Below, in pieces: positions 343 through 5,755 of a stretch of 7,573 nucleotides of DNA. Source of the DNA: an uncultured archaeon (GTDB lineage: Archaea; Asgardarchaeota; Lokiarchaeia; Sigyniarchaeales; Promethearchaeaceae). Position numbers and translations under genes: made by a program. The stretch's first letter is position 1. Each line of letters opens with the position of its first letter. A model generated the notes under the pieces. The model was given only the letters and a program-made list of their open reading frames with translations, did not search any database and was not told where the DNA came from. Location of the stretch: the NCBI GenBank assembly GCA_964426185.1, contig CAYRPF010000109.1, positions 1-7,573 of the forward strand, read 5' to 3'.

Positions 343-408
343 ATTTTGTAAAACTTTCAAATTACCCTCCATTGTCCGTGCAAAGAATGAATATTGAAAA
401 GGTGTGGA

Positions 409-1710
409 ATGATTTATCAATTAAGTAACATGTCGATATCTAATTCAAATTTAAATAATAATGAAGAACAAGAATTCAATAAAAATTCATTAGAGTTTGA
501 TCCTTCATCAATTCCCAAGATTGAATTAAATAAACAGGAGGTTTCCTTATTCCAAATTGATGCTTTAAAAGCCATTGCGATGGTATTGGTAATAATGGAT
601 CACAGTTTTACTCATCAGTTTCTCCATCAATATGGTGCACCTTTTTGGGAGAGAATCGCTATCCCGATATTTATGATCATCATGGGTTTTAATATAGGGC
701 TCTCTTTTCGCAAGCGGGGCGAGATGAGCCTTGAAGAGCTTTATTCTTGGCAATATTTTGAAGCTAAATTGCGTAGGTATATGATACCTTATTTATTGTT
801 GTATTTTATCCATGGAATCATTCGGTTAATCGTTTATACATTGAACATTCCTGTAAATAGTGTCTATTTTTACGATGAGCCAATTTACCGGTTTTTGGGA
901 TATACTTTCTTTTTTGGTCCAGGTCTATGGTTTATTCCAGTTATCTTTGGGTCAATATTGATTTTCCCTTTGATTTATTACTTTTACACCAAGTTTCCAA
1001 CATTAGCCGTAATAGTTACCTTTGAAATCGAATTACTTACACACGGATTAGCTTTTGCTCTCTTAGCACTCAATGGTTTCGTATTCAATTTCGTTTTATT
1101 ATTCTTTCTCTATAGTTTAAGCTCCATGCTCAGCGCTGTTGGTATAGGACTGTGGCTTTCTACGGATTATCGCTGGAATTCACTAAGAAATGTTTTTCTC
1201 TGGATAATTTTTCCAATCGGGATTTTATATATGGTCTTAGATTTTAAGAATATGCTTCCATTCAATTTTCCTTTCGGAGATTACCACATGTTTTATTTTA
1301 TGTATTCAGGGGGCTTATTTATGATAGCCATGCGATTATTTCCAAAAAATCCACAAGGAAAACTGGCAGATTTTATTCGATTGGTTAGTAAGGCTACATA
1401 TCATATTTTATTAGCACAAATCTTTTATTTTTCGATTATCTATCAATTTTTCTTGCATATGAATGATGGAATTCCAGTAACTCCAGATATTTTCGATGGA
1501 AACCCCATTAATTATCTGTGGTACTACCCGCTTAATCTCATTATTACATTTTCCATAGGAATTGTTTGGTATCGATCGGAGACTCACTTTCATCAAAAAA
1601 GGAAAAACAATGTAATATACCAGCAAATCTATCAAATTTTAATCAAATTATCTTTCATAGCGTTCATCTTGTGGCTGGTTGGAAAAGTATTATTCCTCTT
1701 TTTTGCATAA
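409..1710 (+). CDS. Acyltransferase family 3 (AT3, OafA/YrhL-like) integral membrane O-acyltransferase without an SGNH domain
   Basis: QIDALKAIAMVLVIMDH fits the D-x-L-R/K and R/K-x10-H motif of the first helix. AIPIFMIIMGF, KLRRYMIPY, GLWFI and SKATYHILL match the usual AT3 blocks, and there are about 10-11 hydrophobic segments. The start is uncertain: TTG 394, ATG 409 or ATG 430. Confidence 0.88.
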   Translation: MIYQLSNMSISNSNLNNNEEQEFNKNSLEFDPSSIPKIELNKQEVSLFQIDALKAIAMVLVIMDHSFTHQFLHQYGAPFWERIAIPIFMIIMGFNIGLSFRKRGEMSLEELYSWQYFEAKLRRYMIPYLLLYFIHGIIRLIVYTLNIPVNSVYFYDEPIYRFLGYTFFFGPGLWFIPVIFGSILIFPLIYYFYTKFPTLAVIVTFEIELLTHGLAFALLALNGFVFNFVLLFFLYSLSSMLSAVGIGLWLSTDYRWNSLRNVFLWIIFPIGILYMVLDFKNMLPFNFPFGDYHMFYFMYSGGLFMIAMRLFPKNPQGKLADFIRLVSKATYHILLAQIFYFSIIYQFFLHMNDGIPVTPDIFDGNPINYLWYYPLNLIITFSIGIVWYRSETHFHQKRKNNVIYQQIYQILIKLSFIAFILWLVGKVLFLFFA

Positions 1711-1795: not shown

Positions 1796-2143
1796 TTATA
1801 TTAAAAGGAGTATGCCTCCAAATAATACCAAAACTCCACCAATTAGATTACCGAAAATAATCCCAAGAATGCCCAAAACTAACATTATCACACCATTGAA
1901 TCCTACTTTAGTTTTAGAAGATTTAATCACACCTGTTGAAATTAAAACCAAGATTCCAACAACAATTGCAATTATGGCGTTGATTAAAACACCCAAACTT
2001 CCCAGAAAACCGCCTTCTCCTGGAATTCCCAGTGAGAAATTGAAGATTCCCAAGTGTTCTATTAATGCAAAAACACCTTGTATAGTAATTACAAGGCCTC
2101 CAATGATGGCTAAAACTTTAGCTAATCCAGTATTTTTCGCCAT
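1796..2143 (-). CDS. Small Gly-rich hypothetical membrane protein, 115 aa, about 4 TM segments
   Basis: ATG start; hydrophobic G/I/L/V-rich segments with a Lys-rich loop (KSSKTK); C-terminal GGVLVLFGGILLLI. The Pro/Lys/Thr-rich ORF on the opposite strand is its shadow. Confidence 0.85.
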   Translation of the reverse strand: MAKNTGLAKVLAIIGGLVITIQGVFALIEHLGIFNFSLGIPGEGGFLGSLGVLINAIIAIVVGILVLISTGVIKSSKTKVGFNGVIMLVLGILGIIFGNLIGGVLVLFGGILLLI

Positions 2144-2870: not shown

Positions 2871-4283
2871 TTACTCTCCATTAATAAGTTGTGCTGGATA
2901 ATACAGCGTTTTTCTGCCCTTTTTTTCACTAACGATAATTTCTGCATCTAAAAGCTTATCTATATGGTATTTCACGGTCTTATGGTCCAAATCCATCCGA
3001 TGTGCAATCTGTTTTTGGAATATACCAGGATGGTCGTGAATAATTTGCATAATTTCTAATGTAGTTCGGCTTTTTTGCACTGCAGGATCTAGTTTTGCAA
3101 CGGGATTTTTCTCATAGTATGGATAATACACCAAGTACTGTCCCATTCTTTGTTTTCGAACAACTTTGAATGTTTCCAAAATATCCAAATGCCACGCAAG
3201 ATTTCCAGCAGATAATCCCGTTTTGCGCAAAATTTCGTTGAAATGAACTCCAGGTTCATACAAAACTATTTCTATAATTTTATTCCTATTCTCATTTTCT
3301 AATACATCCTCCATCGAAAGCCTGTGAGCACCTTTATCAATATGCAGTACGCGATTTAGGAGAAAGTGGCGATATTCTTGTGAACTCATCAAAATGCCAA
3401 ATAACAAAACTACTATGACAATCCCAATTAGGATAATCCAGAAAATTTTTAAATTCGTAGGAGAAAAGAGGGAACTTTCTTCCAATTTTACAAGGGTAAG
3501 CGTAAAAATATTGGGTATTTCAGATTGATCTGAGTCGAAAGTAAATGCAATTCCGTTCTCTATTGGCTCTGAATTGAGGGAAATCCATTCTTGATTTTCT
3601 GGAACATATATTGCCCATAGATATTTTGAGAAATCTTTTACTACACCAAAATCTGAGTAGTTAAGTAAGGTATATACTTCTAAAGAATCTAATTTCTCTG
3701 GTTCTACTGAAACAGTAAAATAAGTAACGAATTGAAAATTAGGATCTAAAGTTAAATAGTCATCGGTTGAAGAAGCACTAGGTTTTACAAGAAGCTTAGA
3801 TGTTTGGTAAAGGGATTGAGAGATAGATTGAGGAATAGATTTAAAAATATTTTCAATATTTGATGGAGAATAGGATTCATTAAGCGTATTTGTGCTTCCT
3901 TTTTCTTGATTTGATTTTTTTCGGAGAGTAGTTTTTATTGGATGTTCAAATTTACTAAGATAATCTATTTTAACGCTTGTATTGTCGGTATTGTTTATTT
4001 TCATACCAAAAAATCGGTTTATAACATTCTCATCGTAGGAAATCGAAAAATTTACTCCATGCTGAGCTTGTAGTTCAAAAGAAAGATTATTTCCAAATTG
4101 ATAGCGAGATGGTTTTTGTGAACCATGCTGTTGATTCCCATTAAAATTTCCAGGATTATCTGGAGGTCCTTGAGCAAAAATCTCTGTAAAAGAACTAAAA
4201 ATAGAGAGAAAAACAATAGTAAGAACAAGCAAGACATTCATTCTTTTTTTAAATTTTCGCCAAAGAGATTCCATGATACTCAA
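2871..4283 (-). CDS. Membrane-anchored transcriptional regulator: N-terminal signal/TM, ~240-aa ectodomain, one TM, tandem winged-HTH domains (COG3398-like)
   Basis: Basic then hydrophobic N-terminus ending IFA-QG; TM at aa 280-299. Two wHTH repeats: VLENENRNKIIEIVLYEPGVHFNEILRKTGLSAGNLAWHLDILE...YYP and TLEIMQIIHDHPGIFQKQIAHRMDLDHKTVKYHIDKLLDAEII...YYP. Six N-x-S/T sequons lie before the TM and none after. Start may be TTG 4283, ATG 4274 or ATG 4241. Confidence 0.9.
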   Translation of the reverse strand: MSIMESLWRKFKKRMNVLLVLTIVFLSIFSSFTEIFAQGPPDNPGNFNGNQQHGSQKPSRYQFGNNLSFELQAQHGVNFSISYDENVINRFFGMKINNTDNTSVKIDYLSKFEHPIKTTLRKKSNQEKGSTNTLNESYSPSNIENIFKSIPQSISQSLYQTSKLLVKPSASSTDDYLTLDPNFQFVTYFTVSVEPEKLDSLEVYTLLNYSDFGVVKDFSKYLWAIYVPENQEWISLNSEPIENGIAFTFDSDQSEIPNIFTLTLVKLEESSLFSPTNLKIFWIILIGIVIVVLLFGILMSSQEYRHFLLNRVLHIDKGAHRLSMEDVLENENRNKIIEIVLYEPGVHFNEILRKTGLSAGNLAWHLDILETFKVVRKQRMGQYLVYYPYYEKNPVAKLDPAVQKSRTTLEIMQIIHDHPGIFQKQIAHRMDLDHKTVKYHIDKLLDAEIIVSEKKGRKTLYYPAQLINGE

Positions 4284-4312
4284 TTAAATGATTTTAGTAT
4301 ATCTTATTCAGT

Positions 4313-4330
4313 AAGAAAAGAAAAAATAAA
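4313..4330 (-). terminator. Oligo-T tract downstream of the surface-protein gene (candidate terminator)
   Basis: Minus strand reads TTTATTTTTTCTTTTCTT, about 70 nt after the 4402 stop and about 30 nt before the regulator start. Confidence 0.35.
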
Positions 4331-4401
4331 TTTCGCTTATTTATTTCGGTTAAGGTAAAATTTTACACTTGATTTCATCGGCAAATTGATATTTTCATTA
4401 C

Positions 4402-5097
4402 TTAATTACGTTTTCTTCTCAAGACAAAAGAAATAAAACCAATTGCAATTACTGAAGGTACACCTATCCAGAGATATCCTGGAATAGAAATGTTATCAGA
4501 GGATTCTTCTCTGGTAAGAATAGTCCATGATGAGAAATGATCCGTCATTGCGACCAACATTCCGTTTTCATAATTACTCTCAACAGGAACCCATTCTTCT
4601 TCTGCTTCATCATAATATGCCCAAGTTGAATTCGATTCTTTCATTTTTAAAGCCAGACGAGCTTGCAAAGAAACCGATTCATTTAGACTTACATTGATCA
4701 TAAATTGTTCTTGATAACGATACTGCATGCGGTTTCTATTTTGCACTATACTACCATTGGTTAATCCAATATCACTATTTTCAGTTTGAATTGTCATTTC
4801 TGCTTGAATAGATTCGCTGATATTTAGTTCCATTTCAAATTCACGATCTGCTAAACCCGGATCATCGCAATTAATGCTTAAATTTAAGGTTTGATTAACA
4901 CGCATTTGCATTTGAAAGCGATTTTGGAAAGTGAATCGATTGGTTGAATTTCCCACTAAAGTTCCTTGGTGTTTGTTTCCACCAACATTTATTTCATTTG
5001 GTCCACCTTGTGCAGCTACATATTGTGCGGTTAAAGCGGAGATAATGAACACGCTAAAAATGGCCATAATTAATAATCCACGGGTGATTTTCTTCAT
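4402..5097 (-). CDS. Cell-surface glycoprotein with signal peptide, HFS-motif beta-rich domain and IPGY-TM-basic (Loki-CTERM/PGF-CTERM-like) sorting tail
   Basis: MKKITR plus a hydrophobic stretch and VAA-Q cleavage site; nine N-x-S/T sequons in about 175 aa; WAYYDEAEEEWVPVES...TDHFSSWTIL; IPGY (4485-4474) then a TM and RRKRN; SD-like GAAGTGA upstream. Confidence 0.88.
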   Translation of the reverse strand: MKKITRGLLIMAIFSVFIISALTAQYVAAQGGPNEINVGGNKHQGTLVGNSTNRFTFQNRFQMQMRVNQTLNLSINCDDPGLADREFEMELNISESIQAEMTIQTENSDIGLTNGSIVQNRNRMQYRYQEQFMINVSLNESVSLQARLALKMKESNSTWAYYDEAEEEWVPVESNYENGMLVAMTDHFSSWTILTREESSDNISIPGYLWIGVPSVIAIGFISFVLRRKRN

Positions 5098-5099
5098 AG

Positions 5100-5156
5100 T
5101 TTTTCACTTCGAAGCATTTAATGCTTAAATAAAAGATCTTTTGGTGAATATATAAA
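5100..5156 (-). promoter_or_regulatory. Promoter of the surface-protein gene: TATA box, two palindromes and an SD-like motif
   Basis: TTTATATA at 5156-5149; AAAAGATCTTTT at 5131-5142; AAGCATT-T-AATGCTT at 5112-5126; GAAGTGAAAAA at 5110-5100. Confidence 0.55.
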
Positions 5157-5227
5157 GAATCAGAGACGCTTCTCCCCATTTTTCTTACTAAAATCTATAG
5201 TTAGCCCTATATTTTATATTCACATTA

Positions 5228-5755
5228 ATGAGTAGATTACTGGATTTTTTAAAACGCAATAAGTATTTTTTATTGGCCCATCACCCAAAATGTGATAAAT
5301 TTCAAGATGATACAATACAAATTAAGAATACTCAGCTGTGTATCGGGTGTTTTGTCGCCATTCCCATGTTTTTCATCACTCTAACTGTAGGCGTATTTAG
5401 TCATCTTTTTCCAAATCTTTCGATAAAAACACTTCTAATTACAAGCGGAATTCTAACTTCGGGTTATTTAATTGGAAAAATACCGTTTAAAATCCATAAA
5501 ATCGTAAAAATTGTTTCAAAAGGAATGGTCGGAACAGGCGGGGCATTTTTAGTAGGAGTTTTATGGCATTTCCCTTTTTCGCCCTTCGGCCGTTTTCTTC
5601 TCGTATTTGTGATTTTAGAATTTGCTTTTTTGGGTCATGGAATACTTCGGGCAATTTCGATCTATAGAACTTGCAATAAATGTCCCTTTCATTTTGAATG
5701 GAAACGATGTCCTGGAATGAATGAGATAACTAGCCAATTAGATAAAGGATTTTAA
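5228..5755 (+). CDS. Hypothetical ~4-TM membrane protein with Cys/His clusters at both ends (loosely DUF2085-like; probably metal-binding)
   Basis: HHPKC-x15-CIGC before TM1 and CNKC-x8-CPG after the last TM; ATG start; 175 aa. Confidence 0.8.
   Translation: MSRLLDFLKRNKYFLLAHHPKCDKFQDDTIQIKNTQLCIGCFVAIPMFFITLTVGVFSHLFPNLSIKTLLITSGILTSGYLIGKIPFKIHKIVKIVSKGMVGTGGAFLVGVLWHFPFSPFGRFLLVFVILEFAFLGHGILRAISIYRTCNKCPFHFEWKRCPGMNEITSQLDKGF

Follow-up and report, generated by a model that had tools for sequence, protein, structure and literature searches.

A conserved gene pair of the Promethearchaeales joins a candidate self-cleaving MAIN-type surface protein to a membrane-bound transcription regulator with a motif-less copy of its ectodomain

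Why should an Asgard archaeon encode, side by side, a small surface protein and a membrane-bound transcription regulator whose extracellular part resembles it? The question is raised by contig CAYRPF010000109.1 (C109 below) of an uncultured archaeon (assembly GCA_964426185.1; 3.26 Mb, 92% complete), which the names given to its close homologues in databases assign to Candidatus Harpocratesius, in the Promethearchaeales. The whole of this contig stretch, 7,573 nucleotides in length, is referred to here as the window, and all features are numbered on it. Two genes, here termed S (4402..5097) and R (2871..4283), fill the flagged region 2871-5097; they are adjacent and co-oriented on the minus strand, as an initial annotation made from the letters of the DNA had described, and all parts of S and R given below are on that strand. 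The same annotation had proposed that a duplication produced a ligand or decoy on the one hand and a receptor-type transcription factor on the other. We find that S-R is a conserved two-gene module of the Promethearchaeales (Loki-type Asgard archaea), and we lean toward a reading in which the two genes form a coupled system, with S a cleavable surface domain of the MAIN (Microbial Autoproteolysis INducing) type and R a membrane regulator that reads the state of S and acts on a promoter box of the S family.

Homologous ectodomains in a surface protein and a regulator

Gene S encodes a protein of 231 residues (P0002) that consists of a signal peptide, a single MAIN/GAIN_B-like domain, a C-terminal transmembrane (TM) anchor and a basic tail. 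The signal peptide, read from the sequence as residues 1-29 (5011..5097), has a basic n-region, a hydrophobic core and small residues before QGGP, with cleavage predicted after VAA; it is followed by an ectodomain of ≈175 residues (residues 30-204; 4486..5010), a predicted MAIN/GAIN_B-like beta-sandwich with nine N-x-S/T sequons. The chain ends in a TM helix (residues 209-226; 4420..4473), likewise read from the sequence, and the basic tail RRKRN (4405-4419), and a helix and tail of this kind are found in all aligned S homologues. A Pfam scan of S returned nothing beyond DUF4468 at an E value of 0.077. The initial annotation had taken the end of S for a PGF-CTERM-like IPGY sorting tail, an assignment that we reject because the I/L-P-G-Y motif is confined to the genome family of the window, the sister-family S tail being a plain TM helix followed by KKRK, and because the exosortase/archaeosortase family PF09721 was not found in the 92%-complete source genome, with Methanocaldococcus jannaschii scoring as the control. 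An NCBIfam scan of S likewise gave no PGF-CTERM match.

Gene R encodes a single-pass membrane transcription regulator of 470 residues if started from a TTG codon (P0001), or of 467 residues from the ATG at 4274 (P0014). Its N-terminal signal peptide or signal anchor (residues 15-37; 4173..4241), read from the sequence and conserved in orthologues, precedes an ectodomain of ≈240 residues (residues 38-276; 3456..4172), the MAIN-like paralogue of that of S. The R ectodomain carries a genus-specific S/N/Q-rich insert of ≈45 residues (residues 128-172; 3768..3902), which is absent from sister-family regulators and is predicted to be disordered, the predicted local distance difference test score (pLDDT) falling below 50 over ectodomain residues 91-135. 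A TM helix (residues 280-299; 3387..3446), again read from the sequence, aligns in all orthologues and leads into a conserved juxtamembrane segment (QEYRxFLLNR...KGAHRL). The two winged helix-turn-helix (wHTH) domains that the initial annotation had recognized in R follow from there: a PF24266 HTH_HVO_0163_N domain at residues 330-389 (3117..3296; E = 6.1e-20, 71.5 bits against a cut-off of 31) and an HTH_24/MarR-like domain at residues 406-450 (2934..3068; E = 2e-14, 53.3 bits against a cut-off of 21.9). R thus combines a DNA-binding domain and a TM helix on one chain, as transmembrane transcription regulators (TTRs) do, and presents PF24266 above its gathering score followed by HTH_24/MarR, the HVO_0163-type arrangement of two wHTH domains; we found no functional literature on HVO_0163. 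The order of these parts supports an N-out/C-in, single-pass layout in which both predicted wHTH domains lie in the cytoplasmic part (residues 301-470), near the membrane.

Orthologues of both genes were gathered from whole genomes of the order, and ectodomain-only alignments (A3 and A4) were built from 33 R and 37 S sequences. BLASTP aligns residues 11-97 of R with residues 1-92 of S (30% identity, 93 residues, E = 6e-8), a stretch that takes in the signal peptides, and so recovers the similarity between the N-terminal blocks that had been seen by eye. The C-terminal block (WAIYVPENQEW... versus WAYYDEAEEEW...) is missed by pairwise BLASTP, but comparison of the 33 R with the 37 S ectodomains by hhalign, the check that the initial annotation had proposed, yields a significant alignment (probability 98.15%, E = 6.2e-14, 152 aligned columns) that spans from the first strand to the last-but-one and pairs the C-block motifs exactly as first read. 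The shared string EESS, which had also been counted as meaningful, falls in linkers that are not conserved, and we reject it as a shared element. A hidden Markov model (HMM) of S matches R ectodomains in nearly every locus, and does so over nearly its full length of 228 positions in three of them (L014, profile positions 6-227; L025, 19-226; L042, 15-226). AlphaFold2 models of the two ectodomains are all-beta and share the same strand order (pLDDT 92.5 for S and 77.4 for R).

On the strength of these profile alignments, the S and R ectodomains are homologous over their whole length. One might object that pairwise identity is low (15-30%) and that S and R are both rich in N, S, Q and E, so that their similarity could be a matter of chance or of composition in an AT-rich genome. 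This reading is refuted by the profile-profile E value of 6e-14 over 152 columns and by the reciprocal HMM matches in nearly every locus, and the independently computed models of S and R agree on strand order as well; we regard it as having virtually no chance of being correct. A prediction of the complex between the two ectodomains (A3, A4) scored 0.00 against a mark of 0.32, a "no answer" result that counts neither way.

The MAIN-type fold and the H-F-S motif

The domain shared by S and R is best read, from profiles and models, as an autoproteolytic-type beta-sandwich of the GAIN_B or MAIN kind, and S itself as a MAIN domain that stands alone, tethered by a membrane anchor. MAIN domains are GAIN_B-like domains of bacteria and archaea (Brogan and Rudner, bioRxiv 10.64898/2026.05.12.724683, May 2026); in the MAIN domain of Bacillus subtilis YfkN, an HFS motif is cut between F and S and the fragments remain associated (preprint 10.64898/2026.05.12.724683). 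In S, the H-F-S motif lies at residues 187-189 (4531..4539) and is the predicted site of autoproteolysis, with the cut falling between F and S; strands 151-156 and 161-167 of the S model lie on either side of it, such that the motif forms the turn between the last two strands. It reads HFS in 34 of the 37 S homologues and HLS, SFS and EFS in one each. Together with the W-T that follows, HFS makes up the best-conserved positions of the S family: S160 and W162 (ectodomain numbering) are invariant in the S alignment, and H158, F159 and T163 are conserved in at least 90% of sequences. None of the 33 R ectodomains has an H-x-S/T motif within its last 60 residues, where a longer loop stands in place of the tight turn. 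R is therefore a cleavage-dead relative, homologous to S and devoid of the catalytic motif, and is not functionally a MAIN domain.

A search of 1.8 billion proteins with the S profile retrieves the S family itself and bacterial SLH-anchored adhesins of 1460 and 1488 residues (E = 7e-7 and 4e-5). The matched adhesins (P0133, P0158 and P0162; E = 7e-7 to 1e-4) share with S a segment of the form ...YYD-x-W-V-x-V...H-L-T/H-F-T-x-F/Y-A-V, located directly before their SLH anchor domains; the matches cover mainly the C-terminal third, and it is from their architecture that we label these adhesins as MAIN proteins. An NCBIfam model of YfkN-type nucleotidases matches S weakly (profile positions 1213-1338, E = 0.005) and matches four of the 37 S members, the best at E = 6.6e-4. 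The top structural matches of the S model are the GAIN domains of adhesion G protein-coupled receptors (GPCRs), for example, those of BAI3, CD97, CELSR1 and latrophilin. Foldseek with the R model returned generic beta-sandwiches only, and the S profile run against PDB sequences gave only chance matches (picornavirus VP2, E ≈ 0.7).

S departs from the typical MAIN architecture in that the signal peptide and the anchor are present and the passenger domain is absent. In many relatives, two to five MAIN units are arrayed in tandem on one anchor, most units with an HFS motif of their own (P0019, P0020, P0021, P0066, P0068, P0077 and P0091, and NEF87_003083 of Lokiarchaeum ossiferum in locus L012); if all units are cut, such a protein would be a chain of fragments joined only non-covalently. 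It might be argued that HFS is a structural element, that S does not cleave itself, and that the locus holds no more than a surface structural protein beside a regulator of other genes, the product of a local domain duplication. We think this improbable, given that no positions in the family are better conserved than the H, F, S, W and T of the motif, that the model places the motif precisely in the turn leading into the last strand, that HFS is conserved in each unit of the tandem-repeat proteins, and that the box upstream of S described below is nearly specific to the family. With HFS kept in S and lost from R, the likely mechanism shifts from a ligand or decoy to a cleavable sensor part plus an uncleavable transducer; of the pair first proposed, the duplication and the receptor-type transcription factor are retained, and the ligand or decoy is recast in these terms.

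Linkage, single-chain fusions and a promoter box

An S-family match, in proteins of ≈230 residues, is present in 132 of 153 other genomes of the order, and weaker relatives of S occur elsewhere in the phylum. Of 29 loci, each from a different genome, 28 have R downstream of S and in the same orientation, and many more such pairs are legible from match coordinates. Promethearchaeum syntrophicum MK-D1 carries S in duplicate (DSAG12_02936 and DSAG12_02937), with a wHTH regulator (QEE17106.1) after the two copies; the S protein of Lokiarchaeum ossiferum (NEF87_003083) contains two MAIN domains in tandem, and the R gene of that organism is unlinked (L012 versus L046). A literature search found no paper that mentions the module genes of either organism. 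In a joint tree of the S and R ectodomains (quick search, LG+G4), the R ectodomains form one clade (Shimodaira-Hasegawa-like approximate likelihood ratio test, 81) and the S ectodomains another (88), and the same split between genome families recurs inside both clades, which points to a single duplication that predates the divergence of the families and to parallel descent from then on. The duplication proposed at the outset is thereby supported, and so are the conserved adjacency and congruent trees by which it was to be judged. In two loci, the regulator beside S is split into two overlapping open reading frames (ORFs), of 301 and 222 residues in one (L013, genome G149) and of 133 and 308 residues in the other (L031, genome G225), the cause of which could be a frameshift, a sequencing error or decay.

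Two natural proteins combine the parts of S and R on a single chain. The first is P0075 (481 residues; Logan, 14.6 kb), in which a signal peptide and a P/G-rich linker precede a MAIN domain with an intact HFS motif, and a TM helix and the two wHTH domains known from R follow it; P0075 is ≈32% identical to sister-family regulators over ectodomain, TM helix and wHTH domains (E = 2e-52), and its ectodomain falls at the base of the joint tree, without a resolved placement. A search of genome contigs for loci related to P0075 found none. The second, P0031 (contig L079, Ga0114919_10074434), is a single open frame that passes from an S-type MAIN domain with HFS, through a TM helix, to the R juxtamembrane segment and the two wHTH domains of R; its ectodomain nests within the S clade (support 95). 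On a sister contig from that sample, S is a gene of its own. Each fusion is a single observation, and together they argue that S and R work in one pathway.

The faster evolution of R bears on a different reading of the pair. On this view, S and R have a common ancestry and a promoter neighborhood in common without sensing each other: the MAIN-like fold of R would be an ordinary binding domain for an unrelated external signal (for example, a glycan, the surface of a partner cell or a component of the envelope), and S would be an independent adhesin or coat protein that is possibly a target of R. The end branches of R ectodomains in the joint tree (≈0.5-1.2) are much longer than those of S (0.1-0.4), and R carries lineage-specific inserts, as might be expected of a domain that tracks a ligand; in the same genomes, the cytoplasmic module of R is also found in regulators whose ectodomains are unrelated and larger (510-854 residues), TTRs with varied sensor domains are common in archaea (PMC10269533), and the tandem-MAIN S gene and the R gene of L. 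ossiferum are unlinked. This reading is at odds with the retention of S-R linkage in 28 of 29 loci over deep divergence and with the two fusions, which couple an S-type MAIN domain directly to the output of R, and we see no evident reason why a sensor of an unrelated ligand should retain the fold of its neighbor for so long. We therefore consider it a serious but rather unlikely alternative.

A further feature of the locus is a conserved promoter box on the minus strand, ≈50 nucleotides before the start of S (5147..5180), which runs into a TATA box (~5148-5156). Box and TATA in the window read aaTGGGGAgAAGCGTCTCTGATTC-TTTATATAT (5180..5147), with the box being the 25 nucleotides just upstream of the TATA element, and the sister-family version is TGGGGAaAAnTrTTCCTyAATsCTTTTTATAT. 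By a simple filter, the box is found upstream of 31 of the 37 S genes. The sister-family pattern, allowing at most two mismatches, has one or two matches in each of 75 genomes, and the reversed control has none; among the first 25 sites listed, 22 are ≈40-110 nucleotides upstream of an S-family gene, and five checked sites are upstream of S paralogues of ≈300 residues (HFS-bearing MAIN proteins with an insert, for example, P0029). In the source genome, a position weight matrix scores the site in the window at 31.4 bits and the next sites at 18.7 and 16.4 bits; the matrix was built from 23 instances that include the window's own site, which makes the score of 31.4 bits partly circular. The specificity and conservation of the box imply a dedicated factor, for which R is the obvious candidate, and we infer that R acts on the box. 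The near-restriction of the box to the S gene family lends indirect support to the initial suggestion that the regulator might control the surface gene itself.

Two weaker box-like sites in the source genome (G000:C18:44797 in L052 and G000:C1:103116 in L053) each lie ≈65 nucleotides ahead of a contig-end gene whose product is predicted to be secreted or anchored, and together with the site in the window the box-like sites may, judged by their sequence, mark a small regulon. The protein encoded downstream of one of the weaker sites, P0018, has no Pfam match and no usable ESM Atlas match. A tRNA match of 122 nucleotides, a length that would allow for an intron, lies just upstream of the second site (L053 351-472; G000:C1 ~102950-103071). 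The window also has a perfect inverted repeat, AAGCATT-A-AATGCTT (5112..5126, minus strand), downstream of the TATA box and ahead of the S start codon; this repeat is not conserved in other genera. Finally, the genes around the S-R pair all encode membrane proteins. They include an Acyl_transf_3 acyltransferase (394-1710, plus strand; E = 4e-17), a Gly-rich protein of 115 residues with no family (1796-2143, minus strand), a protein of 175 residues with several Cys pairs and no family (5228-5755, plus strand) and an HXXEE-motif protein (PF13787; 6845-7450, plus strand; E = 1e-16).

A coupled S-R module and its known relatives

In the coupled module that we favor, somewhat above even odds, S would be exported and anchored through its C-terminal membrane helix and, by analogy with the MAIN domains to which it is homologous, would cleave itself between F188 and S189 of H-F-S. 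The glycosylated N-terminal fragment of ≈160 residues would then be retained non-covalently on the membrane-tethered last strand. R, an uncuttable and faster-evolving copy of the fold, would act from the membrane on the box at the promoters of S and of S paralogues, its activity following the state of S at the surface, that is, intact or with the N-terminal fragment stripped by force, contact or proteolysis. This state may be relayed to R through the paralogous ectodomains or through neighboring membrane helices, and the cell would then replace or adjust S. Such a scheme resembles the logic of adhesion GPCRs, Notch and RsgI, with the cleavable and the transducing part divided between two proteins. 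Homology, the fold class read from models, the presence or absence of the motif, gene linkage, the near-specificity of the box and the two fusions are what the sequences show; self-cleavage of S, its contact with R, the binding of R to the box and the sign of the resulting regulation are the steps that we infer here.

A number of points weigh against this reading. As to the fold, Z scores are all below 8, a range that according to the tool can reflect a common arrangement only, the Foldseek E value is 0.07, and for R the GAIN structural matches are tied with glycosidase beta-sandwiches. Cleavage of S is read across from bacterial MAIN domains, and S has no passenger to release, unlike described MAIN proteins, which leaves "release" without an obvious cargo. 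Of the fusions, P0075 is a singleton among 5.8 billion proteins, a word-index search with its ectodomain finding only itself, and P0031 comes from a single 2.5-kb metagenome contig, for which mis-assembly is possible. The box varies between genome families, and the next-best sites in the source genome (18.7 and 16.4 bits) barely exceed background (16.2 and 15.4 bits); three of the 25 listed sites are unmapped, one with S on another contig (G165:C66) and two (in G180 and G189) without a family match at E ≤ 0.001; and the factor that acts on the box may be a protein other than R. Further proteins with the same double-wHTH module are encoded in every genome, several of them by larger ORFs (for example, G135:C1:1333516, 854 residues; G141:C22:9741, 781 residues; and G136:C21:8878, 833 residues), which are presumably transmembrane regulators with other ectodomains and would make up an expanded N-out/C-in family in these archaea. 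Lastly, a T-rich tract after the S stop codon (4313..4330, minus strand), possibly an archaeal terminator or attenuator ahead of R, has counterparts elsewhere: the S-R spacer has a median length of 81 nucleotides (34-146), and in 25 of 25 loci measured it contains 6-13 consecutive T and then an A/T-rich stretch. Such an oligo-T suggests that S and R are not simply co-transcribed; the S transcript probably ends there, with R expressed by read-through or from a weak promoter of its own.

A bolder form of the coupled reading, which we consider possible though less likely than not, would have the module work by a route like that of adhesion GPCRs or Notch, in which a cleaved MAIN domain loses its fragment under force or contact and a wHTH factor with a dead MAIN domain reads the event and switches a small regulon of surface genes via the box. 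Chains of the P0075 type, with a cleavable MAIN domain, a TM helix and wHTH domains, would then represent the undivided version. The likeness to adhesion GPCRs lies in an autoproteolytic motif one strand before the membrane and, as a concept, in a shed N-terminal fragment and a tethered signaling strand. S and R differ from these receptors in having no seven-transmembrane (7TM) region, no G protein and no GAIN_A helical subdomain, in having a membrane-tethered transcription factor as output, and in dividing the cleavable and the transducing part over two proteins, except in P0075 and P0031. We reject the classification of S or R as an adhesion GPCR, a class defined by fusion of GAIN to 7TM, since no 7TM family was matched in S or R and each has a single TM helix after the signal peptide.

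Among known systems, MAIN proteins such as YfkN share with S the GAIN_B-like sandwich, an H-F-S motif before the last strand, an N-terminal signal peptide and a surface anchor right after the domain. They differ in being large (mean 158 kDa), with adhesion or enzyme passengers N-terminal to MAIN, whereas S is MAIN alone; and in the present case, a cleavage-dead copy with a TM helix and a DNA-binding output is genetically linked to a cleavage-competent one. MAIN domains are stated to be surface tethers and not to work in transmembrane signaling, and no signaling has been linked to the anchored fragment; the same preprint leaves open whether tethered MAIN peptides affect cell physiology, and makes no mention of Asgard archaea (10.64898/2026.05.12.724683). 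TTRs, in which a DNA-binding domain and a TM helix are likewise present in one protein that is presumed to act from the membrane, are common in archaea, with about four per genome (PMC10269533), and ArnR and ArnR1 of Sulfolobus are counted among them in PMC13286277 (citing PeerJ 2019;7:e6459). The bacterial TTRs ToxR and CadC, as well as ArnR, have an N-terminal DNA-binding domain, and R is built in reverse, with a signal peptide, an outside sensor and a C-terminal DNA-binding domain; neither a GAIN/MAIN-like sensor nor a paralogous partner gene is described for these three regulators. RsgI/SigI systems with SEAL domains also couple extracytoplasmic autoproteolysis, with fragments that stay together, to transcription, and have been proposed to sense force (10.64898/2026.05.12.724683); they are bacterial and differ in their SEA-like fold, in their use of an anti-sigma factor and intramembrane proteolysis, and in the absence of a paralogous dead copy. 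The ZU5/FIIND proteins PIDD, UNC5CL, NLRP1 and CARD8 are cytoplasmic and eukaryotic and serve death-fold signaling, and our analysis found no link to them at the level of sequence.

The initial annotation knew of no described system of this kind. MAIN domains (10.64898/2026.05.12.724683) and archaeal TTRs (PMC10269533) each have been described, and it is their combination that we did not find in the literature. What differs here is a MAIN domain without a passenger, a dead MAIN domain as the sensor of an N-out/C-in regulator, the pairing of the two with a private box, and their single-chain forms. The module is a concrete and testable candidate, in which a cleavage-competent MAIN domain is genetically locked to a membrane transcription factor with a dead copy of the same fold, with a promoter box of its own and two single-chain fusions; its presence in cultured MK-D1 and Lokiarchaeum ossiferum makes existing cultures, transcriptomes and proteomes usable. 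It may be the first link between a microbial MAIN domain and signaling into the cell, and if so would give prokaryotic GAIN-like domains a first role in signaling, among the archaea most closely related to eukaryotes. Should S and R prove to be coupled, the module would bear on contact sensing by syntrophic, protrusion-forming cells and on the origin of eukaryotic GAIN-based mechanosensing.

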